From an uncultured Clostridium sp. (GTDB lineage: Bacteria > Bacillota > Clostridia > TANB77 > CAG-508): 64,000 nucleotides of DNA. Under the pieces are notes generated by a model. It searched no databases. It was not told where the DNA came from and worked only from the letters and a program-made list of their open reading frames with translations. This document shows positions 1,018 through 37,291 of this stretch, piece by piece. The stretch is taken from contig USCV01000001.1 of the NCBI GenBank assembly GCA_900553225.1, positions 2,717-66,716 on the forward strand, in the 5' to 3' direction. Each line of letters starts with the position of its first letter. Position 1 is the first letter of the stretch. A program made the position numbers and the translations under genes.

Positions 1018-1366
1018 AAAGAAGAAAACTATTAAGTATATTATATATTTATTTTATAGACTTCAAATGTGTAAACAGTAACTATAAAAAATTGAAAGTT
1101 GGAGTGGAAAAACCTAGGAAGTTTCTACTTCAACTTTTATATTATTCAATAAAGTGATAATTGTTTATATTCAATAATAAAATTCTAATTTTTAAATGTT
1201 TTAGTTTTTTAAACAATAAAAATTAAAAAAAATGAAAAATGTATTGAAAAAAATGTATTTTAATAGTATAGTATGAAAAGTATAGTCTGAAAATGTTCAT
1301 ATATAATTTTTGATATACAAATTAAAAGAAAGGAACTATGTAAGGAAAAATTACATAGGTAAGCAA

Positions 1367-2449
1367 ATGGGAAAACATAGTATAGAAAACAAAAGAAATG
1401 AAAGAGTAAAAACTACAAAGAAAAAAAGTGGGTTCTTAAAATTTTTAAAAGTATTAGGAATTATTATTCTAATTCTAATATTAATTCTAGTTGGAGTTGG
1501 AATTGGAGGATATATATATATAAACAACAGATTAGGAACAATGAATTATGTTCATATAAATAAAGATGATATAGAAATAAATGAGGGTGTAGAAGAGTCA
1601 CTAAATGGCTATAGAACAATAGCACTTTTTGGTGTGGATAGCAGAGAAGAACAATTAGAAAAGGGAACAAGAAGTGACTGTATAATGCTTGCTGTAATAG
1701 ATCAAAAAAATAAAAAAGTTAATTTAGTTTCCGTATACAGAGATACGTATTTACAAATTCCAGGAAGAGGATTAGATAAAGTAACACATGCATATGCGTA
1801 CGGTGGACCGGCATTATCATTAAGTACATTAAATTCAAATTTAGATTTAAATATTACAGAATTTGCTACGGTAAACTTTGATTCTCTAGTAGATATTGTA
1901 AATGCAGTAGGTGGAATAAAAATAAATATATCATCAGAAGAAAAAAAATATATAAATGATTATATAGATGCAACATCACAAATTGTAGGAAAATCATCAT
2001 CACATATATCACAAGCAGGAACACAGACATTAGATGGTGTACAGGCTGTTGCATATTCAAGAATTAGATATACTGCAGGTGGAGATTACAAAAGAACAGA
2101 AAGAATGAGAACAGTATTAATGGCAATAGCTGATAAAGCAAAAACAATGAATGTTTCGCAATTAAACAATCTAGCAAATATAATATTACCAAAAGTTTAT
2201 ACAAACATAAAATCAGATGAGTTATTATCTCTTCTACCACAAGCTGCAACATATTCATTCTCAGATAGTATAGGCTGGCCTTATGAAACTAAAGGCATAA
2301 CTTTAGACAGATGGTATGGAGTTCCTGTAACACTACAGGAAAATGTAAAGAAATTACATAAAGAAGTGTTTGGACAAACAGATTATGAAGTTTCAAATAA
2401 AGTAAAGACAATCAGTGAATCAATAGTAAAGAAGACAGGATACAAATAA
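1367..2449 (+). CDS. LytR-CpsA-Psr (LCP) family polymer-to-peptidoglycan ligase
   Basis: Short cytoplasmic tail and one TM helix. The LCP core has ALFGVDSRE...RSDCIMLAVID...VSVYRDTYLQIPGRG...NVGGI. The alternative TTG start at 1310 lacks an RBS. Confidence 0.8.
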   Translation: MGKHSIENKRNERVKTTKKKSGFLKFLKVLGIIILILILILVGVGIGGYIYINNRLGTMNYVHINKDDIEINEGVEESLNGYRTIALFGVDSREEQLEKGTRSDCIMLAVIDQKNKKVNLVSVYRDTYLQIPGRGLDKVTHAYAYGGPALSLSTLNSNLDLNITEFATVNFDSLVDIVNAVGGIKINISSEEKKYINDYIDATSQIVGKSSSHISQAGTQTLDGVQAVAYSRIRYTAGGDYKRTERMRTVLMAIADKAKTMNVSQLNNLANIILPKVYTNIKSDELLSLLPQAATYSFSDSIGWPYETKGITLDRWYGVPVTLQENVKKLHKEVFGQTDYEVSNKVKTISESIVKKTGYK

Positions 2450-4823: not shown

Positions 4824-4878
4824 TTTACTTAGAAAGAAAGGGGAGTACAATATAAAAGAATATTGTACAAAATTATTA

Positions 4879-5607: not shown

Positions 5608-5608
5608 G

Positions 5609-6649: not shown

Positions 6650-6652
6650 AAA

Positions 6653-7894
6653 ATGATAAAGAAATTAAAAAGTTTTGTTTTAAATAATTTTTTGATATTG
6701 TTTACAATATATTATTGTACTCTTTTTCTTGATACCTCTTCGTTAGAAATAGATTATCCTCCTATAGAGATAATTTCTAAGATTATAAGGTATGCAATAT
6801 ATATACTTTTATTTATAAGACTAATTTCCATTTTACCTTGTTATAAGGAAGATATAAGTAAAGCTAAGTGGAAAGAAAAGCCTATATTTGTAAAATTTAT
6901 TTATTTTTTAATAATTATAATGATGATAAGTTTAACAATAAATTTTATTACGACTAAAAATAAAAGGATGTTATTTCTAATGCTTCTTTTAATGTCATCA
7001 TATAAGACAGATTATAGAAAAATTATAAAATCTACAATGAATTTACAAATAATTTTAACAAGCATTTTAGTTTTATTATCTATATTGGGAATAACACAGA
7101 ATTATATAGTACCAAGAGGAAAAATTTCAAGATATTCATTAGGATTTGTATATACAACTAATTTAGCTCAGATGATTGCCTTCTCATCGATACTATATTT
7201 ATATAATCAAGGAAGTAAAATAAAAATTAGAGAATTATTTATAATGCAATTAATTAACGCGTTCGCGTATTTTATAACTGACTCAAGAACAGAATTTATA
7301 ATGCTTCAAGTAGTTATAGGACTAGCAATAATGTGGAAGGCATTAAAAAGAATAGATAAGGAAAAAATATTAAAAAATGCTAAAAAAGTATATTCGTATA
7401 TATTTTCTAGAAGTTTTATTATATATCCTATAATAAGTCTTATTATAGTTATGTGTTATCCATCAGGAGGCATATGGAACAATATTAATTCGGCACTTTC
7501 AAATAGATTAAAACAAACTTATGATAATATTGAATATTATGGGATAAGGCCATTTGGCGATGATGTAGAACTATTAGGATTAGGATTAAAAGAAAAAATA
7601 AAATATGGTAGTTATAAAAGTAATTATATAGATAATGAGTATATCCAGATGGTGTTTAAAGAGGGCTATATTTTTGCTATATGTTTTATTATACTAATAA
7701 ATGTATTATTAATTATATTATATAAGAGAAAAAAATATAAAGATGTTATGCTATGTAGCTTATATTTATTATTTGGCTTATTAAACCCAAGAATTGTAAA
7801 TATATTATATTGCCCAATACTTTTTATGATAATTCCAGAGGTTATAGAGTATTGTAAAACAAGTGAAATAAATGTAAACGAAGAAATTTATTGA
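6653..7894 (+). CDS. Polytopic membrane protein, Wzy-like polysaccharide polymerase candidate
   Basis: About 10-12 hydrophobic helices with no soluble domain, located in a Wzx/Wzy-type locus. Confidence 0.45.
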   Translation: MIKKLKSFVLNNFLILFTIYYCTLFLDTSSLEIDYPPIEIISKIIRYAIYILLFIRLISILPCYKEDISKAKWKEKPIFVKFIYFLIIIMMISLTINFITTKNKRMLFLMLLLMSSYKTDYRKIIKSTMNLQIILTSILVLLSILGITQNYIVPRGKISRYSLGFVYTTNLAQMIAFSSILYLYNQGSKIKIRELFIMQLINAFAYFITDSRTEFIMLQVVIGLAIMWKALKRIDKEKILKNAKKVYSYIFSRSFIIYPIISLIIVMCYPSGGIWNNINSALSNRLKQTYDNIEYYGIRPFGDDVELLGLGLKEKIKYGSYKSNYIDNEYIQMVFKEGYIFAICFIILINVLLIILYKRKKYKDVMLCSLYLLFGLLNPRIVNILYCPILFMIIPEVIEYCKTSEINVNEEIY

Positions 7895-8036
7895 TAAAAG
7901 TTCAAATATTATGAAATTGCTTAAAGAACCATTGGAGTATTAATTGATTCTTGAGATATAGATTTATATTTGACTTATTAGACAAAGCAAAATAGAGGAG
8001 AAATATGATGAAAAATGAAGCATTTATGCCTGTTAA

Positions 8037-14745: not shown

Positions 14746-15843
14746 ATGTGGGGAGATATAGCAATAGCATTTTTATTAGCATTCATTACAGCTTTTGTAA
14801 TAACACCATATACAATGAGACTTGCAAAGAAAGTTGGAGCAATAGATATTCCAAATGAGAGAAGAATAAACAAAAAACCGATGCCAAGACTTGGGGGAGT
14901 TGCAGTAATATGTGGTTTCTTTGTATCAATTATATACTTATTATTAACAATGGGTATAGAAAAAAAAGTTAACTTTTTTGGGGAAGAACAATATTACCTG
15001 AAACTTATTGGATTTTTTGTTGGAATTATAGTATTAGGTATTACATGTTTTATAGATGATTCTAAGAATATACCTCCATTAGTAAAATTGTCTGGGCAAA
15101 TAGCGGCTGCAGTAATTGTAGTTGCTTGCGGAGTCAAAATCGAAAATATAAATATTCCTTTCTTTGATAACGCAATACCAATTAATCAAATATTAACATA
15201 TACAATTACAATAGGTTGGATTGTAGGAATAACAAATGCTATTAATTTAATTGATGGTTTAGATGGTCTATCATCTGGAATCACATTAATTTCATGTTTA
15301 TCACTTCTAATTATTTTCTCATTAAATGGAGCTTCAATAGTGCCAATTATATTAATAACAGCACTTGCAGGAAGCATTGTAGGCTTCCTTCCATACAACT
15401 TCAATCCTGCTAAAACATATATTGGTGATACTGGTTCTAATTTTTTGGGATATTCATTAGCAGTAATATCAATAATTGGTGTAGCAAAAACATATACAGC
15501 AATTGTATTAATTGCACCTTTAATAGTATTAGGACTGCCAATTTTTGATACATTATTTGCAATTGTAAGAAGAGTTATCAAGGGCAAATCTATAAAAGCA
15601 ATATTATCTCCAGACAAAGGACATTTACATCATAGGCTAATGGCAAAAGGATATACGCAGAAACAATCAGTTCTAATTTTATATGGAATTAGTGCAACAT
15701 TAGGTATGTTTGCAATCATATTATTAGATAGTGGAATATGGAAAGCTATATCATTTGCATTAATAATACTTGCAATTATTGGTATTGGATATAAAGATAT
15801 ATTTAAGACAAATAAAAATGATGAAAACAATAAAGAAAGCTGA
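14746..15843 (+). CDS. tagO: UDP-GlcNAc:undecaprenyl-phosphate GlcNAc-1-phosphate transferase (GT4 MraY/WecA/TagO family)
   Basis: PMPRLGG, NAINLIDGLDGL and GDTGSNFLGY motifs, with 10-11 TM helices. Confidence 0.85.
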   Translation: MWGDIAIAFLLAFITAFVITPYTMRLAKKVGAIDIPNERRINKKPMPRLGGVAVICGFFVSIIYLLLTMGIEKKVNFFGEEQYYLKLIGFFVGIIVLGITCFIDDSKNIPPLVKLSGQIAAAVIVVACGVKIENINIPFFDNAIPINQILTYTITIGWIVGITNAINLIDGLDGLSSGITLISCLSLLIIFSLNGASIVPIILITALAGSIVGFLPYNFNPAKTYIGDTGSNFLGYSLAVISIIGVAKTYTAIVLIAPLIVLGLPIFDTLFAIVRRVIKGKSIKAILSPDKGHLHHRLMAKGYTQKQSVLILYGISATLGMFAIILLDSGIWKAISFALIILAIIGIGYKDIFKTNKNDENNKES

Positions 15844-15853
15844 GGTATGGTAA

Positions 15854-16891
15854 ATGATAATATTAACTGTAAAAGGCGCAGGAAGTTTTAATGCTGGACC
15901 GAAAGCGCCAAGCGATATAATTGAAATATTAACTAAAAAATATAATGCGGAAAGTGTATTACTAGTTCAGGGAAACGGAATTATAGAAAAAATTAAATAT
16001 AGAAAAAAAATATTTTCAACAATTCTAAAAAGCAAAAAGAAAAAAGAAGTTCTTGTTCTTCAATTCCCTATGTATGAAACTACGAAAATACTTAATAGAT
16101 TATTTTTAATGGCATTAAGCTTTGTTAATAAAGATAAAACAGTGGTATTAATACATGATTTAGATAGCATAAGAGGAAATGATGAAATACTAAAAAAACA
16201 AGAGTTTGATAGACTATCTAAAATAAAATATATAATTGCACATAATGAAAGAATGAAAAAATATCTAGAAGAAATGGGATTAAATGCCAATATTTATACA
16301 TTAGATTTATTTGATTATATTTGCGATAAAAAAGAAAATTACACAAGAAAAAATAATACAATTGAACCTAATTCTTTAAAAATTGCTTATGCTGGAAACT
16401 TAATCAAAGCCAAAAGTCCATATTTATATCAATTAGATAAAGATAAAATGAATTTTTATATTAATTTGTACGGTGTAGGAATCGAAAATAATATAAATGA
16501 AAGGTTGATATATAATGGCAAATATCCACCTAATGAATTACCAGATAAAATAGAAGCAAATCTAGGTCTAATATGGGATGGAAATTTTGACGATAGTGAT
16601 GAAAATGTTGGATTTAAAAAATATACAAAATATAATAATCCACATAAATTATCTTGCTATATTGCAGCAGGACTACCTGTTATAGTGTGGAAAAAAGCAG
16701 CTATTGCTGATTTTGTTAATAAATATAACATTGGTTATACAATTAGTAAGATATATGATATAAATGAAATTGATCTATCAGACTACAATCAGAAACTTGC
16801 CAATATTTCGAAATTACAACAAGAAGTAAGAAATGGCGAGTTTACAATCAGAGTTTTTGATAAAGTTTTAAAAGATATGGAGGAAAAATAA
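15854..16891 (+). CDS. Putative glycosyltransferase, possibly a galactofuranosyltransferase (WbbI-like)
   Basis: Soluble ~345-aa protein immediately upstream of glf. Weak resemblance to beta-galactofuranosyltransferases. The call rests mainly on context. Confidence 0.35.
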   Translation: MIILTVKGAGSFNAGPKAPSDIIEILTKKYNAESVLLVQGNGIIEKIKYRKKIFSTILKSKKKKEVLVLQFPMYETTKILNRLFLMALSFVNKDKTVVLIHDLDSIRGNDEILKKQEFDRLSKIKYIIAHNERMKKYLEEMGLNANIYTLDLFDYICDKKENYTRKNNTIEPNSLKIAYAGNLIKAKSPYLYQLDKDKMNFYINLYGVGIENNINERLIYNGKYPPNELPDKIEANLGLIWDGNFDDSDENVGFKKYTKYNNPHKLSCYIAAGLPVIVWKKAAIADFVNKYNIGYTISKIYDINEIDLSDYNQKLANISKLQQEVRNGEFTIRVFDKVLKDMEEK

Positions 16892-17995
16892 ATGAGTAGA
16901 TATGATTATTTAATAGTAGGTTCGGGATTATTTGGAAGTATATTTGCATATGAAGCAAATAAAAGAGGGAAAAAATGTTTAGTAATTGATAAAAGAAACC
17001 ATATAGGAGGAAATATATACACAAAAGAAGTTGAAGGAATTAATGTACACGAATATGGTGCACATATTTTTCATACAAGCAATAAAGAAGTATGGGACTA
17101 TATAAATCAATTTGCAGAGTTTAACAGATATACAAATTCGCCTGTTGCAAATTATAAAGGGGAAATATACAATTTACCATTTAATATGAATACATTTAAT
17201 AAATTATGGGGTGTAGTAACACCAGAACAGGCTAAAGAAAAAATTGAAGAAGAAAAAAGAAGCAGCAACATTAAAGAACCTAAAAATCTTGAGGAACAAG
17301 CTATCAATTTGATTGGAAAAACTATTTATGAAAAATTAGTAAAGGGATATACTGAAAAGCAATGGGGAAAAAAGGCTACAGAGTTGCCTTCTTTTATCAT
17401 AAAAAGATTACCAGTTAGATTTATTTATGACAACAACTATTTTAATGACACATACCAAGGAATTCCTATTGGTGGATATACAAAAATAATTGAAAAAATG
17501 TTAGATGGAATTGAAGTAAAATTAAATTACGATTTCTTCGAACACAGAAATGAACTAGAAAATATTTCAAAAAAAATTGTATTTACAGGAATGATTGATA
17601 AATATTACGATTATAAATTTGGAGAGTTGGAATATAGAAGTCTAAGATTTGAAACAGAAGTTTTAGATGTTTCTAACTATCAAGGAAATGCTGTTATAAA
17701 TTATACGGATTATGAAACACCTTTTACAAGGATTATCGAACATAAACACTTTGAATTTGGTACACAGGAAAAAACTGTAATAACAAGAGAATACCCTGAT
17801 AATTGGACAAGCGAAAAAGAACCATATTATCCAATTAATAACGAAAAAAATAATGCACTATATGAAAAATATAAAGAATTATCTGAAAAAGAACCAAATG
17901 TCATTTTTGGAGGCAGATTAGGTCAATATAAATATTATGATATGCATAAAGTTATAGAAGAAGCATTATTATGTGCAAAAAGAGAGTTAGAATAA
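16892..17995 (+). CDS. glf: UDP-galactopyranose mutase
   Basis: YDYLIVGSGLFGSIFA FAD-binding N-terminus. Length and conserved blocks match Glf. Confidence 0.9.
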   Translation: MSRYDYLIVGSGLFGSIFAYEANKRGKKCLVIDKRNHIGGNIYTKEVEGINVHEYGAHIFHTSNKEVWDYINQFAEFNRYTNSPVANYKGEIYNLPFNMNTFNKLWGVVTPEQAKEKIEEEKRSSNIKEPKNLEEQAINLIGKTIYEKLVKGYTEKQWGKKATELPSFIIKRLPVRFIYDNNYFNDTYQGIPIGGYTKIIEKMLDGIEVKLNYDFFEHRNELENISKKIVFTGMIDKYYDYKFGELEYRSLRFETEVLDVSNYQGNAVINYTDYETPFTRIIEHKHFEFGTQEKTVITREYPDNWTSEKEPYYPINNEKNNALYEKYKELSEKEPNVIFGGRLGQYKYYDMHKVIEEALLCAKRELE

Positions 17996-18014
17996 AATCC
18001 TAGGAGGAAAATGA

Positions 18015-18989
18015 ATGGAAAAAGTAAGGGAACTTTTGAAGAAGAACAAATTAATTTTTGGAATTTGGAATAAATTTTATCAAAGAAAATTAAATAAAAA
18101 AGAAGAAGCAAAGTTAAAAGGAAAATATGAATTTATTGACAGAAGTAAAAAAAGCGAAAATTTATGCATAATTTTAGCAGGGTATAAAGAATTCTTATGG
18201 AAGGAAGTATTTGAAAGAATTGAAAAATTTATTCCTAAAGATTTTGATGTTTGCATTGTTTCTCCAGGAATGTTTAATGAAAAATTAGTAGAATTGTGTG
18301 AAAAAAATAGTTGGTCATATTTAAGTGTAGAAATGAACAAAGTTACTTTAGCACAGAATATAGCAATTCATTTACATAAAAGCGCAAAGTATATTTATAA
18401 ATTAGATGAAGATATGTTTATTACAGAAGGATTTTTTGAAAACTTGAAAGAAACATATTTAAAAGTTAAAGAAGAAAATAAGTATAAAGTAGGCTTTGTA
18501 GCACCGTTAATTAATATTAATGGATATAGTTACAGAAGGATCTTAGAGAAAACTAATTTGTTATCAAAATTTGAAGAAAAATTTAAATCAGCATATATGG
18601 ATGCGACTCCTGGAGAACAAATTATTGAAAATGGAGAGATTGCAAAATTTATGTGGGGAAATGGCAATCAAGAATTAAAAAATATAGATGAAATTTCACG
18701 AAAATTTTCTAAGGAAGAATTTTCATATTCAATTTGTCCAATTAGATTTAGTATAGGAGCTATATTGTTGCCAAGAGAAACATGGAATAAAATGGAGAAA
18801 TTTGATGTGTGTAGAGGAAACAATATGGGGTTAGATGAAGTAAAACTTTGTCAGTTTTGTACAATATATAGTAGAGTAATGGTTATATCAGAAAATATAT
18901 TGGTAGGACATTTTTCATATGGTCCACAAACTTCAGAAATGAAGAAATATTACCAAGAACATAAAGAAATATTTTCATTAAAAAGTTAA
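18015..18989 (+). CDS. Hypothetical protein, candidate glycosyltransferase of uncharacterised family (DED motif)
   Basis: No recognised domain. A KLDEDMF acidic motif and its position among GT genes suggest a transferase. Confidence 0.3.
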   Translation: MEKVRELLKKNKLIFGIWNKFYQRKLNKKEEAKLKGKYEFIDRSKKSENLCIILAGYKEFLWKEVFERIEKFIPKDFDVCIVSPGMFNEKLVELCEKNSWSYLSVEMNKVTLAQNIAIHLHKSAKYIYKLDEDMFITEGFFENLKETYLKVKEENKYKVGFVAPLININGYSYRRILEKTNLLSKFEEKFKSAYMDATPGEQIIENGEIAKFMWGNGNQELKNIDEISRKFSKEEFSYSICPIRFSIGAILLPRETWNKMEKFDVCRGNNMGLDEVKLCQFCTIYSRVMVISENILVGHFSYGPQTSEMKKYYQEHKEIFSLKS

Positions 18990-19005
18990 TATGAAAGGAT
19001 ATACG

Positions 19006-20472
19006 ATGAGTAAAAAGAGTATTTCAAAAAATTATTTTTATAATTTATTTTATCAGATATTAGTAATTGTAATGCCACTTATTACAACACCATATTTATC
19101 TAGAGTACTAGGCGCTGAAAGCATAGGAATTTATAGTTATACATTATCAATTGCTACATATTTTATTCTTTTTGGAACACTAGGAATCTCTATGTATGGT
19201 CAAAGAGAAATTGCATATGTTCAAGATGATGAGAAAAAAAGAAGCATTGTGTTTTGGGAAATAGTATTGCTTAAAGCAATAACAATGACAATTTCAATAT
19301 TAATATTCTGGTTTACTTATGGAATGTATGGAGAATATAAAATATACTATAGGATTTTGATTATTGAATTAATAAGCCAGTGTATTGATATTAGTTGGTT
19401 CTTTCAGGGCATTGAAGAATTTAAAAAAACTGTTATTAGAAATTCTATAGTAAAACTCATATTTGCTGTATGTATATTTATATTTGTAAAATCTCCAAAT
19501 GATTTAATAAAATATATTGTTATAATTGCAGGAGCTAATTTATTTGGAAATTTATCTTTATGGATGTATGTTCCTAAGTATATAAAAAAAATAGAATTAA
19601 AGAAATTACATATTTTTAAACATTTAAAGCCAACTATACTTCTATTTATTCCACAAATCGCAGTACAAATTTATACTGTACTTGATAAAACAATGCTTGG
19701 TATGATGATTGAAGATAAATCAGAGGTTGGTTTTTACGAGCAATCACAAAAGGTAGTAAAATTATTGCTAACTTTGACTACTTCATTAGGAACAGTTATG
19801 GTTCCAAGAATGGCAAGTACATTTGCTAAAGGAGATAAAGAACAATTAAAAAGATACATGTACCGTTCATTTAGTTTTGTTTTCTTTTTGGCATTTCCAA
19901 TAATGGCAGGACTTATATTAATTTCGGGTGAATTTGTGCCAATCTTTTTTGGGCAAGGATATGAGAAAGTTATAGTATTAATAAATGTCATTGTTCCGAT
20001 TACATTATTTATTGGACTTAGCAATATAACTGGAATCCAGTATCTATTACCAACAAAAAGACAAACCGAATTTACTATTTCTGTTGTGATAGGTGCAGTT
20101 GCAAACTTTATCTTGAATTTAATTACAATAAAAAAATATGCTTCAATTGGAGCATCAATCACTACAGTTATAGCTGAGTTTTTGGTAACAGCTGTTCAGT
20201 TTTACTTTGTTAGAAAGGAAATAAATATAAAAAAGGTACTATTACTATCAAAAAACAACGTTATTGCTGCAGTTGTTATGTTTATAACAGTATATATGAC
20301 ATCAAAAATTTTACCATTACATGGAATATATATTATTATAGCCCAAATGATTGAAGGATGTATAATATATGGTATTGTATTAATTTTACTAAAAGATAGT
20401 TTTATTCATGATGTTTTTAATAAAATAAATGAAAAAAAGAATGTTGTAATAGAAAAGTTTAGGAGTAATTAA
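19006..20472 (+). CDS. wzx: Wzx-type oligosaccharide-unit flippase (polysaccharide biosynthesis protein, MOP superfamily)
   Basis: Fourteen predicted TM segments. N-terminal YNLFYQILVIVMPLITTPYLSRVLGAESIGIYSY is typical of Wzx. Confidence 0.8.
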   Translation: MSKKSISKNYFYNLFYQILVIVMPLITTPYLSRVLGAESIGIYSYTLSIATYFILFGTLGISMYGQREIAYVQDDEKKRSIVFWEIVLLKAITMTISILIFWFTYGMYGEYKIYYRILIIELISQCIDISWFFQGIEEFKKTVIRNSIVKLIFAVCIFIFVKSPNDLIKYIVIIAGANLFGNLSLWMYVPKYIKKIELKKLHIFKHLKPTILLFIPQIAVQIYTVLDKTMLGMMIEDKSEVGFYEQSQKVVKLLLTLTTSLGTVMVPRMASTFAKGDKEQLKRYMYRSFSFVFFLAFPIMAGLILISGEFVPIFFGQGYEKVIVLINVIVPITLFIGLSNITGIQYLLPTKRQTEFTISVVIGAVANFILNLITIKKYASIGASITTVIAEFLVTAVQFYFVRKEINIKKVLLLSKNNVIAAVVMFITVYMTSKILPLHGIYIIIAQMIEGCIIYGIVLILLKDSFIHDVFNKINEKKNVVIEKFRSN

Positions 20473-20473
20473 G

Positions 20474-21604
20474 ATGAAAAAAATAACAATATTATTATTA
20501 CATATGCAACATGGAGGTATTGAAAAGCAGACCATTTCTTTTGCAAATGAATTAAGCAAAAAATATAATGTTGAAATTATATCTGCATATTCAATGAAAA
20601 AGGATCCTGCTTATGAAGTAAATCAAAAAATCAGTATAAAATATTTAATCAATGATGAACCTAATAGAATAGAATTTAAGAAAGCAGTAAAAAGTAAAAA
20701 CCCATTTAAAATAATAAAGCAAGGTTTCAAAGCAATAAAAATATTGTACTTAAAAAATGCATTAATGGTTAGAGCAATAAAAAAAATAGACTCAGACTTT
20801 GTATTATCAACACGAATCGAATATGCAAAAATGCTTTCGAGATATGCACCAAAGTCGGTTGTTACAATGACACAGGAGCACCTTCATGATGATTCGAAAA
20901 AATACATAAAAAGGATAAAAAAATCTTTTAAAAATTTAGATTATCTTATTGTGCTTGGACCAGGTTCTAGAGAAAATTATAGTAAATGGTTAAAAGATAA
21001 TAAAAAGATAAAAATTGTTGAGATTCCTAATATGCTAGAAGAAATACCAAAAGAGAGCAGTTTACTAAATGGCAATAAATTAATTGCAATTGGAAGATTA
21101 CATCCTGTTAAAGATTTTGAAACATTGATACATGTATTTTACAAAGTACAAAAACAAATTCAAACTGCAACTCTTACCATAGTTGGTGGAGGAGATGAAT
21201 ATGAAAAATTAAAGAACTTGACTATGGATCTAGGCATACAAGATAAAGTTGAAATTACAGGAATGGCTTCAAAAGAGCAAGTAAAAGAGTATTTACTAAG
21301 TTCAGACATATATGTTATGACATCTTTAACGGAATGTTTTCCAATGGTTTTATTAGAAGCAGCATCATGTGGACTTCCATTAATTGCATTTGATGTCCCA
21401 GTCGGACCAAGAGCTATTATAAAAGAAGATGAAGACGGATATTTAATTGCAAATAGAAATCAAGATGAAATGGCAAAAAAAATTATAGATTTATTGAATG
21501 ACAGGGAAAAACTAAGCAAACTTGGAGAAAAGGCTAAAGAACAATCATTTTGTTATATACCAAGTAAAATTATGAAAAAATGGGACGACATTTTTCAAAA
21601 GTGA
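20474..21604 (+). CDS. GT4 glycosyltransferase (GT-B)
   Basis: C-terminal ...TECFPMVLLEAASCGLPLIAFD matches the EX7E GT4 signature. Confidence 0.8.
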   Translation: MKKITILLLHMQHGGIEKQTISFANELSKKYNVEIISAYSMKKDPAYEVNQKISIKYLINDEPNRIEFKKAVKSKNPFKIIKQGFKAIKILYLKNALMVRAIKKIDSDFVLSTRIEYAKMLSRYAPKSVVTMTQEHLHDDSKKYIKRIKKSFKNLDYLIVLGPGSRENYSKWLKDNKKIKIVEIPNMLEEIPKESSLLNGNKLIAIGRLHPVKDFETLIHVFYKVQKQIQTATLTIVGGGDEYEKLKNLTMDLGIQDKVEITGMASKEQVKEYLLSSDIYVMTSLTECFPMVLLEAASCGLPLIAFDVPVGPRAIIKEDEDGYLIANRNQDEMAKKIIDLLNDREKLSKLGEKAKEQSFCYIPSKIMKKWDDIFQK

Positions 21605-21618
21605 AATGGAGGTAAAGT

Positions 21619-22485
21619 ATGATAACGGTATTTACACCTACTTACAATAGAAAAGATGAATTAATAAATTTATACAAATCCTTATTGGAACAGGAATTTA
21701 AAGATTTCGAATGGGTAATTGTTGATGATGGTTCAAAAGACAATACAGAAGAAACAGTTAAAAATTTTATTAAAGAAAATAAAATAAAAATAAATTATTA
21801 TAAACAAGAAAATAAAGGAAAGAGTTTAGCTCATAATAAGGGAGTAGAATTAGCACAAGGTGAATACTTTGTAGGAATTGATTCAGATGACATTTTTGCT
21901 CAAGATGCATTAAAAAAAATTCATAAATATTTTGAAATAATAAAAGAGAAAAGTGACATTTGTGGAATATGTTTTTTAAATTATAAAAAAGGTACAAACC
22001 AAATAATTGGGCATAAATTTCCACAGGATGAAATGGTGGATACTTATTATAATTTATATCATAAACACAAAATTACTGGTGACAAAGAAATGGTTTTTAA
22101 AACTAGTGTGTTGAAGGAATTTCCATTTCCTATATATGAAAATGAAAAATTCGTACCAGAAGCATTAGTATTTAACAGAATATGTAAAAAGTATTTATTT
22201 TTATGTATTAATGAGCCCGTTATTTACAAAAAGTATTTAATTGAAGGCTATAGCGCAAATTATTTTAATTTAGCAAAGAAAAATCCAAGAGGACAAATGA
22301 CTTATTATAAAGAATTATATGATTTGGAACCTACAAATTACAATATTGCAGCATATAATATGTATTCAATATATGCAAAATATGGATTTATAAAGACAAT
22401 AAAAGAGCATCCAGCGAAAATTAAATGTTTAGCTATGTATATACCAGCATATATAAAGTACTTACAAAAGGAGAGAAAAAAATGA
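21619..22485 (+). CDS. GT2 glycosyltransferase
   Basis: ITVFTPTYNRKDEL...WVIVDDGSKDNTEE...GIDSDD. Confidence 0.8.
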   Translation: MITVFTPTYNRKDELINLYKSLLEQEFKDFEWVIVDDGSKDNTEETVKNFIKENKIKINYYKQENKGKSLAHNKGVELAQGEYFVGIDSDDIFAQDALKKIHKYFEIIKEKSDICGICFLNYKKGTNQIIGHKFPQDEMVDTYYNLYHKHKITGDKEMVFKTSVLKEFPFPIYENEKFVPEALVFNRICKKYLFLCINEPVIYKKYLIEGYSANYFNLAKKNPRGQMTYYKELYDLEPTNYNIAAYNMYSIYAKYGFIKTIKEHPAKIKCLAMYIPAYIKYLQKERKK

Positions 22486-23558
22486 AAAAAATAATGTTTT
22501 TTGGATATACATTGGAAGTTGGAGGGGCAGAAAAAGTATTAGTTGATTATATTAATGAACTACAAGATAAATATGAAATTACATTAGTTTTATTGCAAAA
22601 AAAAGGAGAATTTTTAGAGAGTGTTCCTAAAAATATTAAAATAATACAGTTAAGAAATAATAACTTACAATATGTTCTTTTTAGATATATTCCATTTATA
22701 AGAAAAAGAAAAATAAATAGAATTGTTGAAAAAGAAAATTGCGATATAGCAATAGGCTTCTTTGAAGGAAGAAGTGCTACATGGGTTGCGGACATTAAGA
22801 AGAAAGTAAGAAAGCTTGCATGGATACACAATGATGTTAACAAATTTGATATAGGAATTTCGGAAAAAGAAATAATAGATACATATAATAAAATGGATAA
22901 AATCATTACTGTATCTGAAGTAGCTAAAGAGAGTTTATGCAAAAAATATAATTTTAATAAAGAAAAAATCGAAGTATTATACAATCTAATAGACGAGCAA
23001 AGTATTATTGAAAAGTCTAGAGAAGTGGTTCCTAGAAATGATGTCTTTACTTTTGTAAATGTTGGAAAAATGCGACCTCAAAAAAGACAAGATAGATTAA
23101 TAGAAATTGCAAGAGACTTAAAAAATGAAAATTATAAATTTAAAATTCAGATAATTGGAAATGGACCAGAAGAAGAAAAGATTAAGAATCTTGTCAAAGA
23201 ATATAAGGTTGAAGATGTTGTTGAATTATTAGGATTAAAACTTAATCCTTATCCGTACATTAAGCAAGCAGATTGTATTGTGGTTTCAAGTGATTTTGAA
23301 GGATATAGTGTTGCAATTAAAGAAGCATTACTACTAAAAAAGGCAGTTGTTTCGACAAATGTATCTGGTGTATCGGAAATGTTTGATAATGAAAAATATG
23401 GAATATCAACCGAAATTTCTACTCAGGATTTAGAAAAAACAATGAAGAAGGTACTAGATGGAACTATAGATATAAAAAAAATAGAAAATAATTTAGAAAA
23501 ATTTGATTGCGGAAATAATCAAATTATACAAAAACTTATAAAATTGATAGAGGGATAG
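22482..23558 (+). CDS. GT4 glycosyltransferase
   Basis: ATGA overlap with the upstream gene and an AAAGGAGAG RBS. FGYTLEVGGAEKVL N-terminus and EGYSVAIKEALLL C-terminal block. Confidence 0.75.
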   Translation: MKKIMFFGYTLEVGGAEKVLVDYINELQDKYEITLVLLQKKGEFLESVPKNIKIIQLRNNNLQYVLFRYIPFIRKRKINRIVEKENCDIAIGFFEGRSATWVADIKKKVRKLAWIHNDVNKFDIGISEKEIIDTYNKMDKIITVSEVAKESLCKKYNFNKEKIEVLYNLIDEQSIIEKSREVVPRNDVFTFVNVGKMRPQKRQDRLIEIARDLKNENYKFKIQIIGNGPEEEKIKNLVKEYKVEDVVELLGLKLNPYPYIKQADCIVVSSDFEGYSVAIKEALLLKKAVVSTNVSGVSEMFDNEKYGISTEISTQDLEKTMKKVLDGTIDIKKIENNLEKFDCGNNQIIQKLIKLIEG

Positions 23559-23566
23559 ATAGTAGG

Positions 23567-25771
23567 ATGGAAAATATAAAAAACAAGATAAAAACAATTA
23601 TTAATGTTAAAGTTATTACAAAGTTAGTATTATTTTTTATAATACTACAACCTATTTTTGATATATTATCATTTTTAAATATTAGAGGTTATATTCCAGT
23701 TGGAATATCAACAATCATAAAACCATTATTTGTATTTGGAATAGGTCTTATAATTTATTTTATAGATAAAAAACAAAGAAAATCTTACACCAAAATATTT
23801 GTTGGATATGGAATTTTAATATTGATACATAGCATTATTTTAAAGGATATAATGGTATCTAATTCTGTAATATTACATGAATTAAGATTTATGATTAATA
23901 TAGCATATATGATTGTAATGTTTATGATTATGGACTATGTATACATAAATAATGAAGACAAAACAGAATTTATTAATAAATTAAAGAAAACATTAGTAAT
24001 TACATTTCTAATATATACAATTACAATTGTTTTAGCTGTTATAACAGGTACATCTGCTAAAACATATGAATATTCTGATGCAACTAAACAAGGATATAAG
24101 GGTTGGCTAGATTCTGGACAGATTTTTGGGCACGCTTTATCAATTACATTACCTTTTATGATTTATTACTTGTTAAAATATGATTGGAAAAATAAAATAA
24201 TCAATATTTTAAGTAGGGTTTGTATCATCTTACCAGTAGGCGTTTTACTTTTAATTGGAACAAAAGTAACATTCTTTATTGCACTATTAGTTCTAATATC
24301 ACATGTAATATTAGATGGTATTTACTTTATAAAAAAAAGGCAAAGAAAAGACTTATTTTCAAGTATAGCTTGTTTGATATTACTAATATTATCAATTAGT
24401 ATATATCCATATTTACCAGTAAAAAAGAATATTGATATTAATAATAATGTTTTATCAGTTGATATGTCTGGTATTGAAAAAGGTAGTGAAACAAACAGAA
24501 AAGATTTAATAAAAATGAAAGAAAATATTAGTAAAGGTGAAAGCAATACTAATAGAACAAAATTTCAAGATGAAAGATTAAAAAGAATAGAAAAGTATTA
24601 TATGTGGGATTATAAGTCATCTACATTACTAGAAAATAAATATGCAACAGGAGAATTACATCCTAGTGACATGAGAGCAAGACAATTAGTCTACAATTTG
24701 AATAAGTATAAATTATCATCAATTCAATATAAATTATTTGGTCTTGGATATTTAAATCAACCAGAAGCATTATCAATAGAAAGAGACATTTTTATGATAA
24801 TATTTAGTTTTGGTATTATTGGATTTTTGACTGTATTACTAAAGCCAATATTAATTTGGTTGAAGTCAACATTTAAGATTTTAAAAAATTTCAAGGAAAT
24901 TGAATTAGATACATTATATTTATATGAAGGTCTTTCAATATTTTTCTGTATAAGTATTTATGCTGGATACACATTTATATATACAAACTTTTCAATATTC
25001 CTTGTAATTATTGCACTGTTATTAAGAGATAGTTTTAGAAAATATAGTAAAAATAGTTTTAATAAATATTTTGACAAAATCTATAAAAATGGAAGAACAG
25101 AGTTTTATTCAGAATTAGAAGAAAAAATTACTAAAAATGAAAAGCAATTTATTGTTACTGCAAATCCAGAAACACTAATGCAATCTGAAAAAGATGAAGA
25201 ATTAAGAAAAGCAGTATTAGATGATAAAACGGTTATAATACCTGATGGTGTTGGAATAATAAAGGGAGCAGATAAATTGAATTATCAAATTAAAGAAACC
25301 ATTTTAGGTGTTGACGTAGCTAATAAACTATTAGAATTAGCAGATAAACATAATAAAAAGGTGTTCTTGTTTGGAGCAAAAAAAGAAACAATTGAAAAAA
25401 TGCAACAAGTTATAAAAGAAAAATATAGTAGCTGTAATCTTGTAGGAGCTATCGATGGTTATGTAAACAACAAGGATGAAGTGTTTGAAAAAATAAAGGA
25501 AGCAAATCCAGATGTTGTTTTAGTTGCACTTGGAATACCAAATCAAGAAAAACTTATATATAAAAATCTTAGTAAATTTGAAAAAGGAATATTTGTAGGA
25601 GTTGGTGGAAGTTTTGATGTAATTAGTGGATGCAAGAAGAGAGCTCCAAAGATATTTATAAAATTAAAATTAGAATGGTTATATAGAATTACAGTAGAAC
25701 CAAGTAGATTAAAGAGATTTTATGAAAGTAATATTAAATATTTATTTAAGATAAATAATGATGTAATATAA
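23567..25771 (+). CDS. Two-domain protein: N-terminal O-antigen ligase/polymerase-like polytopic membrane domain (Wzy_C-like, large extracytoplasmic loop) fused to a C-terminal WecG/TagA/CpsF family GT26 (ManNAc/GlcNAc transferase) domain
   Basis: About 500 aa with around 10 TM helices and a roughly 120-aa hydrophilic loop. The C-terminal 230 aa IVTANPETLMQ...DGVGII...VFLFGAKKET...VLVALGIPNQE...GVGGSFDVISG...RAP..LEWLYRI..EPSRLKRF is a full GT26 domain. Confidence 0.75.
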   Translation: MENIKNKIKTIINVKVITKLVLFFIILQPIFDILSFLNIRGYIPVGISTIIKPLFVFGIGLIIYFIDKKQRKSYTKIFVGYGILILIHSIILKDIMVSNSVILHELRFMINIAYMIVMFMIMDYVYINNEDKTEFINKLKKTLVITFLIYTITIVLAVITGTSAKTYEYSDATKQGYKGWLDSGQIFGHALSITLPFMIYYLLKYDWKNKIINILSRVCIILPVGVLLLIGTKVTFFIALLVLISHVILDGIYFIKKRQRKDLFSSIACLILLILSISIYPYLPVKKNIDINNNVLSVDMSGIEKGSETNRKDLIKMKENISKGESNTNRTKFQDERLKRIEKYYMWDYKSSTLLENKYATGELHPSDMRARQLVYNLNKYKLSSIQYKLFGLGYLNQPEALSIERDIFMIIFSFGIIGFLTVLLKPILIWLKSTFKILKNFKEIELDTLYLYEGLSIFFCISIYAGYTFIYTNFSIFLVIIALLLRDSFRKYSKNSFNKYFDKIYKNGRTEFYSELEEKITKNEKQFIVTANPETLMQSEKDEELRKAVLDDKTVIIPDGVGIIKGADKLNYQIKETILGVDVANKLLELADKHNKKVFLFGAKKETIEKMQQVIKEKYSSCNLVGAIDGYVNNKDEVFEKIKEANPDVVLVALGIPNQEKLIYKNLSKFEKGIFVGVGGSFDVISGCKKRAPKIFIKLKLEWLYRITVEPSRLKRFYESNIKYLFKINNDVI

Positions 25772-25798
25772 AAATAAAAGGATTGAAAGAGGAAAAAA

Positions 25799-26902
25799 AT
25801 GATTAAAGTAATGACGGTTTTTGGAACAAGACCTGAAGCTATAAAAATGGCTCCATTGGTTAAAGAATTAAAATCAAGAAAGGAAATAGAATGTATTGTT
25901 TGTGTAACTGCACAACATAGGCAAATGTTAGATCAAGTATTACATACTTTCAATATAGTTCCAGATTATGATTTAGATATTATGAAACAAGGACAAACTT
26001 TAAGTGATATAACATCTAGAGCTTTAAAAGGTTTAGAAGAGGTAATACAAAAAGTAAAACCTAATATAGTTTTAGTTCATGGAGATACAACAACAACTTT
26101 TGCTGGAGCACTTGCAGCATATTATTCTCAAGTTGATGTTGGACATGTTGAGGCAGGGTTAAGAACTTGGAATAAATATTCTCCATTTCCAGAGGAAATG
26201 AATAGGCAGATGGTAGGCGTAATTGCAGATATGCACTTTGCTCCTACAGAAAATAGCAAAAATAGTTTACTAAAAGAAGGCAAAAAAATAGAAAATATTT
26301 TTGTTACAGGAAATACTGCAATTGATGCTCTTTCTACAACTGTTGATCAAAATTATAAAAATGAAATTTTGGATTGGATTGGAAAAGATAGAATGATTCT
26401 TATAACAGCACATAGAAGAGAAAACTTAGGAGAGCCAATGAGAGGAATGTTTAAGGCAATTAAAAGGATTATTGATGAGTTCCCCGATGTAAAGGCTGTA
26501 TATCCCGTACATTTGAATCCAAAAGTAAGAGAAGTTGCAAATGAAGTGTTTGGTGATGATAACAAAATAAAATTAATAGATCCACTAGAAGTAATTGATT
26601 TTCATAACTTTTTAGCAAAATCTTATTTAATACTAACAGATAGCGGTGGTATTCAAGAAGAAGCTCCGTCATTAGGAAAACCTGTTTTAGTATTAAGAGA
26701 TACAACGGAAAGGCCAGAGGGAATAACAGCAGGAACATTAAAGCTTGCAGGAACAGATGAAGAAACAATATATAAACTAACAAAAGAATTACTTGAAAAT
26801 AATGAAGAATATGAAAAAATGAGTAAAGCATCAAATCCATATGGTGATGGAAAAGCAAGCAAGAGAATCGTTGACGCTATTATAAGAAAATATGGAAATT
26901 AG
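25799..26902 (+). CDS. mnaA: UDP-N-acetylglucosamine 2-epimerase (non-hydrolysing)
   Basis: MIKVMTVFGTRPEAIKMAPLV and full-length conservation with WecB/MnaA. Confidence 0.9.
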   Translation: MIKVMTVFGTRPEAIKMAPLVKELKSRKEIECIVCVTAQHRQMLDQVLHTFNIVPDYDLDIMKQGQTLSDITSRALKGLEEVIQKVKPNIVLVHGDTTTTFAGALAAYYSQVDVGHVEAGLRTWNKYSPFPEEMNRQMVGVIADMHFAPTENSKNSLLKEGKKIENIFVTGNTAIDALSTTVDQNYKNEILDWIGKDRMILITAHRRENLGEPMRGMFKAIKRIIDEFPDVKAVYPVHLNPKVREVANEVFGDDNKIKLIDPLEVIDFHNFLAKSYLILTDSGGIQEEAPSLGKPVLVLRDTTERPEGITAGTLKLAGTDEETIYKLTKELLENNEEYEKMSKASNPYGDGKASKRIVDAIIRKYGN

Positions 26903-26984
26903 CTGTAAAAAAAGTAAGACATTATTCAATATTTTAAAATGAAACTTTTGAAATCAAATTATAAAAAAGAATGTGAGTTATGGT

Positions 26985-27990
26985 ATGAAAAATGAGAGAA
27001 TAATTAACCCAGAAACTATCAATTCTGGAGAAGAAAAACTAGAAACATCATTAAGACCACAAGTTTTAAGTGAATATATAGGACAAACTAAAGTAAAAGA
27101 AAACATGAAAATATATATAGAGGCTGCCAAAAAAAGAGGTGAGCCTCTTGACCATGTTTTACTATATGGACCTCCAGGACTTGGAAAAACAACACTTTCA
27201 AATATAATTGCAAATGAAATGAATGCAAAAATAAAAATAACATCAGGGCCTGCGATAGAGAAAACAGGAGATTTAGCATCAATTCTTACAAGTTTAAATG
27301 AAAATGATATATTATTTATAGATGAAATCCATAGGATTAACAAAAATGTTGAAGAAATATTATATCCAGCTTTAGAAGACTTTACATTAGACATTATGAT
27401 AGGAAAAGGACCAACTGCGAAATCAATTAGAATTGATTTACCAAAGTTTACTTTAATTGGAGCAACAACAAAAGCAGGGTCGCTTTCTACACCGCTAAGA
27501 GATCGCTTTCGGAATAGTACATAGATTAGAGTTATATAGTGTTGAAGACTTATGCATTATTGTAAAGCGTTCGGCAAGTATATTACAAATTGAAATAGAA
27601 AATAATGCGGCAATGGAAATTGCAAGACGTTCAAGAGGAACACCAAGAATTGCAAATAGACTGCTTAAAAGAGTAAGAGATTATGCACTTGTTTTGGGCG
27701 ATGGAAATATTACATTAGAAATAACAAAGCTTGCTCTTACAAGACTTGAAATAGATGAACTTGGACTTGATGAAATAGACAGAAAAATTTTGGAAACTTT
27801 AATTGTAAATTATCAAGGAAGACCAGTTGGTATTGATGCACTTGCAACTACAATTGGAGAAGAAGTAGATACAATTGAAGATGTATATGAACCATATTTA
27901 ATACAAATAGGCTTTATTTCAAGGACGGTAAGAGGAAGAATAGCTATGCCGGCAGCATATAAGCATTTAAAAATAGAATTTGAAGCATAA
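26985..27990 (+). CDS. ruvB: Holliday junction helicase RuvB, interrupted by a +1 frame break at in-frame CGG (27510-27512)
   Basis: N-terminal part is ...[10 protein letters not shown]...DEIHR...PLRDRF. Skipping C27510 continues [14 protein letters not shown]...[24 protein letters not shown], which otherwise appears as the separate ORF 27613..27990. Confidence 0.85.
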
Positions 27991-28017: not shown

Positions 28018-28591
28018 ATGAAACTATTAATGCATACTTGTTGTGCTCCTTGTAGTATTTATTGTATAGAAACTTTAAGGAATGAGGGGATAGAGCCAAC
28101 TCTTTACTGGTATAATCCCAATATTCATCCATACAAAGAATACGAAGCAAGAAGAGATACTTTAAAGGAATATAGTAAAATGATAAACATAAATGCTATT
28201 TTTGAAGAAGATTATGGACTTAAGAATTTTTGCAAAAATGTAATAGATGATTTGGATAATAGATGCAGTAATTATTGTTACAAAGTACGTTTAGAGCAAA
28301 CTGCAAAATATGCAAAAGAACATGGCTATGATGCAATTACTACAACTCTTTTTGTAAGTCCATATCAAAAGCATGAAGCAATAAAAAAGATTGCAAGTGA
28401 AATTGCTAAAAAATATGACTTGGAATTTGTATACAGAGATTTTAGAGTTGGATTTAGAGAAGGACAAGCAAAAGCAAGAGAACTTCGGATTATATATGCA
28501 AAAATATTGCGGTTGTATATTTTCAGAGGAGGATAGATATAGTAAGCAAATAAAAAGAGATAGAGAAGATAATATAAACCATTCTATGTAA
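28018..28591 (+). CDS. queH: Epoxyqueuosine reductase QueH (DUF208), interrupted by a +1 frame break at in-frame CGG (28486-28488)
   Basis: CCAPCS N-terminus. ...FREGQAKAREL then, after skipping the C, GLYMQKYCGCIFSEE. The conserved C-terminal CGC motif is only reachable in the +1 frame. Confidence 0.8.
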
Positions 28592-37244: not shown

Positions 37245-37291
37245 TTTAATATAATAATTAATAATCATTAATAATATAAGGAGAAATTAAA

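Follow-up and report, generated by a model that had tools for sequence, protein, structure and literature searches.

What does a single polypeptide accomplish that carries both a membrane domain of the O-antigen-ligase type and a complete WecG/TagA glycosyltransferase, and why should the two be joined? The question is raised by one open reading frame (ORF) on the plus strand, 23567..25771, of a DNA stretch of 64,000 nucleotides from an uncultured gut Clostridium sp. (assembly GCA_900553225.1, contig USCV01000001.1, positions 2,717 to 66,716), referred to below as the window. The product has two Pfam domains, both over threshold, non-overlapping and essentially full-length: the membrane family PF13425 and, behind it, glycosyltransferase (GT) family GT26. 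We think it probable that the fusion is an enzyme with two activities, serving a cell-wall polysaccharide pathway of the Wzx/Wzy type in a monoderm member of the Clostridiaceae, and that the joining is a modular tether. The domain identities and folds, the conservation of residues known from TagA, the predicted topology, the outward conservation of the membrane domain, the make-up of the operon and the repeated occurrence of the architecture were resolved here. What we infer is which sugars are used, whether the chemistry is that of a polymerase or a ligase, what the product is and why the domains were fused.

The frame is uninterrupted from ATG to stop (734 amino acids (aa) plus the stop codon), in a window that is very AT-rich, with a G+C content of 24-31%. 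Its integrity was an important point because single-base frameshifts interrupt two genes nearby, ruvB and a queH-like gene. The 90%-identity cluster of the protein has 61 near-identical members, nearly all of 734 aa, from NCBI, JGI, ENA and Logan; one of these sequences, HJJ04516.1 (source label Clostridiaceae bacterium), is found on 203 contigs, the longest of 1.82 Mb. An identical precomputed two-domain architecture is recorded for about 33 other 90%-identity clusters (53-81% identity), and an exhaustive HMMER scan, which covered 1.84 billion representatives, gave end-to-end matches of 27-43% identity in at least 18 clusters formed at 50% identity. Pfam confirmed four of the latter, and in the distant fusions the alignment is unbroken across the domain junction. 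That a wzy-like gene and a tagA gene were merged here by a missed stop or an indel is next to impossible: the frameshifts, 1-3 kb downstream, would favour such an error, but near-identical 734-aa copies from independent assemblies occur on hundreds of contigs, so the fusion is not an assembly artefact. The chimera of two ORFs, or undetected stop, that the initial annotation had named as a danger was thus ruled out by the cluster, the contigs and the end-to-end homologues.

The same counts show that calling the fusion unusual was an overstatement. The protein and its architecture are already public in nr, annotated only as a WecB/TagA/CpsF glycosyltransferase, and other GT26 fusions are common. 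A literature search found no published description of a Wzy/O-antigen-ligase-GT26 fusion; in a paper on Sphingomonas promonan the two functions are encoded by separate genes. The taxonomic labels of the fusion carriers are Clostridiaceae or Clostridia bacterium metagenome-assembled genomes (MAGs). When genome contigs were scanned with the fusion protein, the only matches were to an unfused GT26 protein of a Lachnospiraceae MAG (L001) and, weakly at 23%, to L002, and a profile search from the distant fusions (A3) retrieved essentially the same set, with no cultured organisms.

The two domains meet within a few residues. In the AlphaFold2 (AF2) model, transmembrane helix 12 (TM12) spans aa 473-489, and the junction between its end and the start of the GT26 domain (25034..25057, plus strand, aa 490-497) is only about eight residues long. 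Stand-alone PF13425 proteins finish at about aa 488-500 of the fusion and stand-alone GT26 proteins align from about aa 497-502. Between aa 487 and 537 there is no Met that could serve as the ATG start of a separate GT26 product.

The C-terminal part (25058..25771, plus strand, aa ~498-734) is a GT26 domain of the WecG/TagA/CpsF type with the GT-E fold and an intact C-terminal tail. It matches PF03808 (Glyco_tran_WecG) at aa 555-719, covering model positions 2-168 of 168, with 173.3 bits against a cutoff of 27.4 (E 4.9e-51), and the NCBIfam model TIGR00696 (wecG_tagA_cpsF), whose cutoff is 69, with 162.9 bits. Aligned with Thermoanaerobacter italicus TagA (7MPK) and with GT26 proteins that stand alone, the domain starts at aa ~495-500, slightly upstream of the residue ~505 first proposed, and ends at 734 as before; TagA residue 27 aligns to residue 521 of the fusion. 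The sequence match to 7MPK has an E value of 7.4e-33. The AF2 model, with a predicted local distance difference test (pLDDT) score of 88, was compared with known structures by Foldseek and superimposes on 7MPK, 5WB4, 5WFG and 7N41 with target TM-scores of 0.78-0.86 and root-mean-square deviations of 2.1-2.6 A.

The residues that matter in T. italicus TagA are T37, N39, D65, Y137 (uracil stacking), Q167/E168 and the tail arginines (PMC6493773, PMC8784642). D65 is the general base, and the mutants D65A and T37A have been tested (PMC6493773); the tail arginines R214, R221 and R224 matter for catalysis (PMC8784642). In the fusion T37, N39, D65 and Y137 correspond to T531, N533, D560 and Y632, and Q167, E168, R214 and R221 to Q660, E661, R707 and R714; all eight are identical in 25 of 25 aligned fusions. 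R224 corresponds to R717, as read off the 7MPK alignment, and is nearly invariant among 19 aligned sequences of the distant fusion set, in which the amphipathic-helix motif LEWLYR is invariant. With these residues in place and an epimerase gene close downstream, the domain is most likely an active N-acetylmannosamine (ManNAc) transferase. It is the operon context, described below, that points to UDP-ManNAc as the donor and to N-acetylglucosamine-diphosphate-undecaprenol (GlcNAc-PP-Und) as the acceptor. TagA and WecG are active only when at the membrane (PMC6493773, PMC8784642, PMC9804384).

The N-terminal part (23567..25033, plus strand) belongs to PF13425 (O-antigen_lig), which it matches at aa 17-486 over model positions 4-455 of 462, with 142.3 bits against a cutoff of 31 (E 2.7e-41). 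Both domain assignments of the initial annotation were therefore right. Hydropathy, the distribution of charge and two AF2 models all indicate 12 TM helices. The predicted topology has the N-terminus inside, the loop at aa 279-406 outside and the C-terminus inside, with the basic loops KKQRK (66-70), KKRQRK (254-259) and 431-446 on the cytoplasmic side in a positive-inside pattern; this is the arrangement of WaaL, and the GT26 domain is therefore predicted to be cytoplasmic. The predicted cytoplasmic loops include aa 66-73, 128-131, 205-209, 258-259 and 441-446. The AF2 model of the membrane domain alone has a pLDDT of 91.4 and a predicted TM-score of 0.90. The large hydrophilic loop noticed at the outset is thus the 128-aa stretch between TM9 and TM10 (24401..24784, plus strand), predicted to lie outside. 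It is largely helical in the AF2 model (284-296, 312-326, 332-361, 369-383 and 386-391) and contains the invariant residues N288, R370, Q373, K389 and E405, followed by D407 at the start of TM10. A second external loop, between TM5 and TM6 (24047..24133, plus strand, aa 161-189, GTSxxTYEYSDAxKxGxKGWLDSGQIFGH), is near-invariant and is a candidate active-site loop; T162, Y167, D171, K174, G176, K178, G179, W180, S183, G184, Q185, I186 and H189 are invariant in it.

Regarding the fold of this domain, the O-antigen ligase WaaL (7TPG_B) is its sole significant Foldseek neighbour in the PDB (E 4.7e-4, probability 1.00, TM-scores 0.43/0.50). All remaining matches, MFS, MATE and ABC transporters included, have a probability of at most 0.12, and a transporter fold, which would have placed the domain in an unrelated family, was rejected since WaaL is the only significant fold match. 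The relation to WaaL rests on the fold and on Pfam clan membership, because a profile of the family misses WaaL.

Conservation was taken over 62 homologues of all architectures, in which 44 positions of the membrane domain are invariant and a further 43 nearly so. These conserved positions are concentrated on the outer side: 81 of the 87 lie in outer helix halves or external loops, compared with 316 of 493 residues overall (odds ratio 9.8, p 1.5e-11). Among the outward-facing conserved residues are R107, D171, K174, K178, H189, K233, R370, K389, E405 and D407, and only three of the 44 invariant residues are in the cytoplasmic half. Placed on the models, this pattern fits an enzyme whose active site faces outward and binds pyrophosphate, not a passive anchor. 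That the membrane domain is a catalytically dead relic, kept only as a membrane anchor for TagA, is very improbable. The membrane requirement of TagA would agree with it, and in the fusions of PF13425 to an Alg14-like domain the last TM helix of PF13425 stands where stand-alone Alg14-like proteins have their N-terminal TM anchor; such proteins normally carry a single anchor of this kind. But an anchor of 490 aa and 12 TM helices would hardly keep 87 conserved positions, many of them charged, and the stand-alone members of the family are conserved equally. The inactive anchor was rejected on the outward-facing conservation. One polypeptide would then combine cytoplasmic transfer of a second sugar with an extracytoplasmic domain of the polymerase or ligase type, as the initial annotation proposed, and the domains, predicted topology and fold fit this proposal.

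The genes around the fusion suggest the pathway in which it may act. From 14746 to 26902 all genes are on the plus strand with minimal spacing and no plus-strand terminator inside, in the order tagO, galfT, glf, a 324-aa ORF, wzx, GT4, GT2, GT4, fusion, mnaA. The best promoter-like site, with 11 of 12 positions, is at 14675-14703, just upstream of tagO; promoter and terminator counts are not above shuffled expectation, so that the scan gives weak support for the operon boundaries. The first gene (14746..15843) encodes a TagO/WecA-type polyprenyl-phosphate GlcNAc-1-phosphate transferase, the pathway initiator (PF00953, E 3.2e-39; TIGR02380 ECA_wecA, E 6.1e-35, under its cutoff), and is the only initiating transferase in the window. 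It is followed by a galactofuranosyltransferase-like gene (15854-16891, plus strand; NF007326 beta-1,6-galactofuranosyltransferase, E 5e-66, under the equivalog cutoff) and by the UDP-galactopyranose mutase gene glf (16892-17995, plus strand; PF03275, E 2.3e-87). A flippase of the Wzx type, MOP family, is encoded at 18991..20472 (PF01943, E 3.2e-33, and PF13440; weakly NF041871 Wzx_EPS), and three cytoplasmic glycosyltransferases at 20474..23558, assigned by Pfam to GT4 (20474-21604), GT2 (21619-22485) and GT4 (~22482-23558). Only 28 nucleotides downstream of the fusion begins the gene of a non-hydrolysing UDP-GlcNAc 2-epimerase, MnaA/WecB (25799..26902; TIGR00236 wecB, 559 bits against 210; PF02350, E 1.3e-124). 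An epimerase is again found downstream of the fusion in two other loci, L006 and L007, the fusion of L006 being 53% identical. Elsewhere in the window, at 1310..2449 on the plus strand, is a gene for a LytR-CpsA-Psr (LCP) glycopolymer-peptidoglycan ligase (PF03816, E 1.8e-37; TIGR00350, 96 bits against 62), likely the enzyme of the final attachment step.

Taken in order, these components would give the following pathway. The TagO/WecA-like enzyme would make GlcNAc-PP-Und and MnaA would supply UDP-ManNAc. The GT26 domain, held at the inner membrane face by the short junction, would add ManNAc to give ManNAc-GlcNAc-PP-Und, by analogy with TagA through a beta-1,4 linkage, with D560 as base and the tail residues R707, R714 and R717 closing over the UDP-sugar. 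The repeat unit would be finished by the galactofuranose (Galf) transferase and the GT4, GT2 and GT4 enzymes and flipped by Wzx. Outside, the 12-TM PF13425 domain, with its WaaL-like fold and outward active site, would act on the Und-PP-glycan, most probably as a Wzy-type polymerase, and the LCP enzyme would attach the polymer to peptidoglycan. The tether would fix the second-step transferase at the membrane, with one copy for each copy of the polymerase.

By analogy with known pathways, each repeat unit probably has the ManNAc-GlcNAc pair at its reducing end, the pair not being a one-off linkage unit, because the window has one initiator, one Wzx and an LCP enzyme; the "second sugar of the linkage unit" of the initial annotation therefore appears the less likely description. 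Enterobacterial common antigen (ECA) and the secondary cell wall polysaccharides (SCWPs) of Bacillus anthracis and Paenibacillus alvei are built with such a reducing end on each repeat unit (PMC9804384, PMC6030368).

The polymerase reading of the membrane domain draws on several points. In the loci L003 and L005-L007 the PF13425 protein is the only Pfam-recognisable Wzy-like protein by Wzx, although an unassigned polytopic protein of 479 aa is also encoded in L006 and L007; the LCP enzyme covers the ligation step, and a PF13425 protein has been assigned as Wzy elsewhere, in Flavobacterium (PMC5601056). Alternatively, the membrane domain could be a ligase of the WaaL or WpaA/WpaB type that moves a finished Und-PP-glycan onto an acceptor outside the membrane, a possibility that we regard as doubtful. 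The acceptor could be a "murein linkage unit", ManNAc-GlcNAc-PP-Und, made by its own GT26 domain as in the B. anthracis model, or a membrane glycolipid, or a surface protein, as for an O-oligosaccharyltransferase of the PglL/WsaB kind. The Pfam family is named O-antigen-ligase-like and its only structural neighbour is a ligase, but Wzy, WaaL and O-oligosaccharyltransferases share one Pfam clan, so the WaaL fold does not discriminate. In the B. anthracis model PF13425 proteins would ligate onto linkage units (PMC6030368), and an acceptor supplied by the fused transferase would be a neat rationale for the fusion. With a sole initiator of the TagO type, on the other hand, linkage unit and repeat unit are not obviously both provided, the loci named above lack any other Pfam-recognisable Wzy candidate beside Wzx, and in monoderms final attachment is done by the LCP enzyme, which is present. 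If the domain is a ligase, the actual polymerase could be a weakly Wzy_C-like protein encoded at 6653..7894.

Why the two domains are joined is best approached through the relatives of the membrane domain, which is found with several partners. It occurs alone (~485-515 aa), with an Alg14-like domain, PF08660 (~655 aa), with GT4 (~855 aa) and with GT4 and GT26 together in metagenomic triple fusions of ~1,070-1,085 aa (P0197, P0207 and P0371). A metagenomic protein of 706 aa (P0212) combines GT26 with Wzy_C (PF04932), a separate family of the same clan, which suggests, as far as the sequences go, a convergent joining of Wzy-like and GT26 modules. GT26 is also found as GT4+GT26, as VanZ+GT26 and in tandem; among the metagenomic P0221 and P0275 are tandem GT26-GT26 proteins and one that has VanZ beside a pair of GT26 matches, and such a duplication may be linked to the dimer-monomer regulation of TagA. 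The statement that GT26 enzymes are normally stand-alone therefore holds for the characterised enzymes and fails for sequence space. Two other proteins, P0193 (544 aa, SusD-like plus GT26) and P0034 (635 aa, PF13425, PF12708 and GT26), are probably chimeric or truncated metagenomic gene calls, unfit for a census.

The loci of these variants are syntenic or similar in order. L006 and L007 read Wzx-GT4-GT2-GT4-[PF13425+GT26]-(x)-epimerase, and L003 reads Wzx-GT4-GT2-GT4-[PF13425+Alg14]-Alg13-like, so that the GT4-GT2-GT4 trio lies upstream of the PF13425 gene in both GT26-fused and Alg14-fused loci. L005 has a related order, Wzx-GTs-Glf-GT4-[PF13425+GT4], and in L008 Alg14, Alg13, GT4, GT4 and PF13425 alone are separate genes. 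Wzx and repeat-unit transferases share a locus with PF13425 in the window operon and in L003-L007. In L006 (12220-13659), and likewise in L007, the gene right after the fusion encodes a 479-aa polytopic protein with no Pfam match, at least nine hydrophobic segments and a long loop, possibly a GT-C-like extracytoplasmic glycosyltransferase that decorates the polymer; L004 and L008 carry DUF6020 membrane proteins. In a neighbour-joining tree of the membrane domain the Alg14-fused proteins nest within the GT26-fused clade, and they are ~70% identical to the membrane domain of the fusion, more than many GT26 fusions are; on these grounds the C-terminal module was swapped. Alg13/14, like Cps14F/G, is a second-sugar enzyme on polyprenyl-PP-monosaccharide that needs the membrane. 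GT26 and Alg13/14 are thus both membrane-dependent enzymes of the second sugar.

The initial annotation took the fusion to imply physical coupling, which goes further than the evidence allows. It is rather unlikely that GT26 and membrane domain form one obligatory unit joining initiation to polymerisation or ligation, whether by substrate hand-over, by feedback of Und-P or Und-PP, or by nucleation of a GT-Wzx-Wzy complex. The repeated fusion of this Wzy-like family to cytoplasmic transferases, the independent Wzy_C+GT26 protein and the very short junction would agree with such a unit, as would the adjacent, translationally coupled wzyE and wecG of Shigella, where deletion of wzyE weakens the membrane association of WecG (PMC9804384). 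Crosslinking with dithiobis(succinimidyl propionate) (DSP) in Shigella shows no contact between WzyE and WecG, however (PMC9804384), and the two active sites are on opposite sides of the membrane, with several transferase steps and a flippase between them. No conserved cytoplasmic docking surface is visible when the conservation among the 62 homologues is mapped on the predicted topology. The fusion is also facultative, because one clade contains different C-terminal partners and some close relatives have none, so that tethering or co-expression would account for it adequately. A modular tether, and not an obligatory channelled machine, explains the fusion best; it is the simpler reading because the cytoplasmic face is unconserved and the partner domain interchangeable. 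We would only tentatively entertain the idea that the recurrent fusions, in which the partner is the cytoplasmic transferase working on the first lipid-linked sugar (GT26, Alg14, GT4+GT26 and, independently, GT26 with Wzy_C), are "Rosetta-stone" evidence for coupling of initiation and polymerisation in Wzx/Wzy pathways, through a GT-Wzx-Wzy complex, or for a PF13425 domain ligating onto the linkage unit of its own GT26. To our knowledge such an assembly complex was proposed long ago and has never been demonstrated.

Several observations weigh against the reading as a tethered polymerase and TagA-like transferase. A sequence profile of the membrane family searched against the PDB fails to reach WaaL, and the invariant outward-facing residues R107, K174, K178, H189, K233, R370 and K389 are candidate equivalents of the pyrophosphate-binding arginines and catalytic histidine of WaaL. 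Polymerase and ligase are not separable by sequence or fold, the sole solved neighbour being a ligase at TM-scores of 0.43-0.50, and we know of no PF13425 protein with demonstrated activity, WpaA and WpaB of B. anthracis included. The 413-aa polytopic protein at 6653..7894 (plus strand), with ~10 hydrophobic segments and a sub-threshold match to PF04932 Wzy_C (E 0.0097, 16 bits against 31.7), is a possible second polymerase- or ligase-like candidate in the window. It has no Pfam family above threshold, its other weak match being to the VpsF family (E 2.8e-4), and its neighbours (LicD, GT2, IspD/TarI-like, reductase and acyltransferase genes) form a putative alditol-phosphate decoration module. 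No chain-length regulator of the Wzz/polysaccharide co-polymerase (PCP) or CpsC/D type was found among ORFs of at least 110 aa in 1-28,000; such a regulator is not an absolute requirement in monoderm SCWP-type pathways. The tree in which the Alg14 fusions nest has no bootstrap values. On the side of the transferase, the TarA equivalog model NF041710 gives 177.7 bits against a cutoff of 350, and the domain is therefore filed as a GT26 family member and not as a strict TarA equivalog. The equivalent of TagA R83 is Thr578, with Thr in 23 of 25 close fusions and Asn in two, and its co-varying partner R205 is Ile or Val in the subclade of the fusion. R83 has been placed near the lipid diphosphate by modelling, without mutation (PMC6493773). 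With Thr578 at this position, donor or acceptor specificity may differ from that of TagA. Most distant fusions retain Arg here, so the change is a subclade trait, and R83-to-Thr was rejected as a signature of the fusion.

Some further features of the window were noted. In the interval between glf and wzx (18015-18989) lies a 324-aa soluble ORF with no Pfam or NCBIfam match; L005, L006 and L007 have a Gtf3-like transferase of similar size (340-347 aa) in the cassette, beside Glf or Wzx, and the ORF may be a divergent GT. The listed ATG of the third glycosyltransferase gene, 22425, overlaps the GT2 gene by 61 nucleotides, and family alignments start at residue 20 (MKKIMFFG); the true start is probably ~22482, with a 4-nucleotide overlap of the kind typical for translationally coupled genes. 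Another set of glycopolymer genes, 226-9083, encodes a DUF4422 GT, the LCP ligase, LicD, a GT2, a cytidylyltransferase of the CDP-alditol type, a dehydrogenase/epimerase and an acyltransferase_3 protein. No initiator or flippase of its own was seen in this set, which may add ribitol- or glycerol-phosphate and O-acetyl groups to the same polymer.

Downstream of mnaA, ruvB (26973-27990) is broken into two ORFs where the frame shifts by +1, with one C too many in GAT CGC TTT[C]GGA ATA at ~27,500-27,510; the reading "...PLRDRF" resumes as "GIVHRLELY..." one frame over, through an assembly indel or in a true pseudogene. The queH-like gene (28018-28591) has a frameshift near 28,470, its conserved C-terminus "...QKYCGCIFSEEDRY" lying in the other frame (ORF 28391..28591). 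The occurrence of two indels in 1.5 kb points to sequencing or assembly that is prone to such errors. Further on, three ORFs of 337, 366 and 549 aa at 36231-38392 (plus strand) and 39707-41356 (minus strand) have no Pfam family at E 1e-5; they lie amid polA, asnB, der, a two-component system and an FtsX-type ABC permease.

We know of no Wzy-dependent pathway in which it has been shown how cytoplasmic synthesis of the repeat unit communicates with external polymerisation; for ECA the only hints are the translational coupling of wzyE and wecG and a weak effect on membrane association. The unfused, fused and partner-swapped relatives constitute a natural series for testing this link, and the fusion offers a stable, membrane-anchored TagA for structural work with the lipid substrate. 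For annotation, proteins of about 730 aa named only "WecB/TagA/CpsF glycosyltransferase" hide the probable polymerase of their locus. If the joining is only a tether, the fusion is a tidy, ordinary case of modular domain fusion in polysaccharide loci.

How the fusion compares with known systems can be seen domain by domain. The GT26 domain shares with TagA/TarA (7MPK, 5WB4) the GT-E fold, ~31% identity, the core and tail residues, the amphipathic helix and a UDP-GlcNAc 2-epimerase partner. It differs in having Thr for R83 and a TarA equivalog score under the cutoff. TagA is a stand-alone, peripheral protein of ~245 aa with a dimer-to-monomer switch, whereas the domain of the fusion is permanently tethered; and TagA serves a TagGH ABC-transporter pathway with a single linkage unit, whereas the fusion sits in a Wzx-type operon. 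The membrane domain resembles the WaaL of Cupriavidus metallidurans (7TPG/7TPJ) in its 12 TM helices, a large late external loop and outward basic and His residues; the roles of the WaaL arginines and histidine are summarised in PMC12800693. It differs from WaaL in sequence (12% identity, low TM-scores and no profile match) and in its much larger external domain, and the lipid A-core acceptor would not be expected in monoderm Clostridiaceae. The sister fusions (PF13425 with Alg14, with GT4 and with GT4+GT26, and Wzy_C with GT26) have the same plan of an N-terminal Wzy/WaaL-clan domain and one or more C-terminal cytoplasmic transferases, and differ in the partner GT family; the Alg14, GT4 and GT26 variants whose loci were read sit in Wzx-containing GT cassettes. 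A literature search found no experimental characterisation of them.

At the level of whole systems, the closest unfused analogue is the enterobacterial wzyE-wecG pair, of which the fusion would be a covalent version. The ECA module (WzyE and WecG, with WecA and WzxE) likewise starts from an initiator of the WecA/TagO type and uses a GT26 enzyme to extend GlcNAc-PP-Und by the second sugar; a Wzx flippase and a polymerase of the Wzy superfamily belong to it as well, and the gene order is wzy then GT26. In ECA, unlike here, polymerase and transferase are two separate proteins, and the Pfam match of the fusion is to PF13425 and not to WzyE. WecG moves N-acetylmannosaminuronic acid (ManNAcA), for which the dehydrogenase WecC is required; the scanned ORFs of the window yielded no UDP-ManNAc dehydrogenase. 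ECA belongs to diderms and has the co-polymerase WzzE, a regulator without a counterpart in the same ORFs. The relation to the ECA module is thus one of analogy, not of membership. The closest homologue set is TagO/TagA with WpaA/WpaB of B. anthracis. WpaA and WpaB belong to PF13425, and polymerisation or ligation of the ManNAc-GlcNAc-containing SCWP has been proposed as their role (PMC6030368); there they and TagA are encoded by separate genes and the likeness is by Pfam family, whereas the PF13425 membrane protein, the TagO/TagA/MnaA chemistry, the monoderm wall and the LCP end step are common to both systems.

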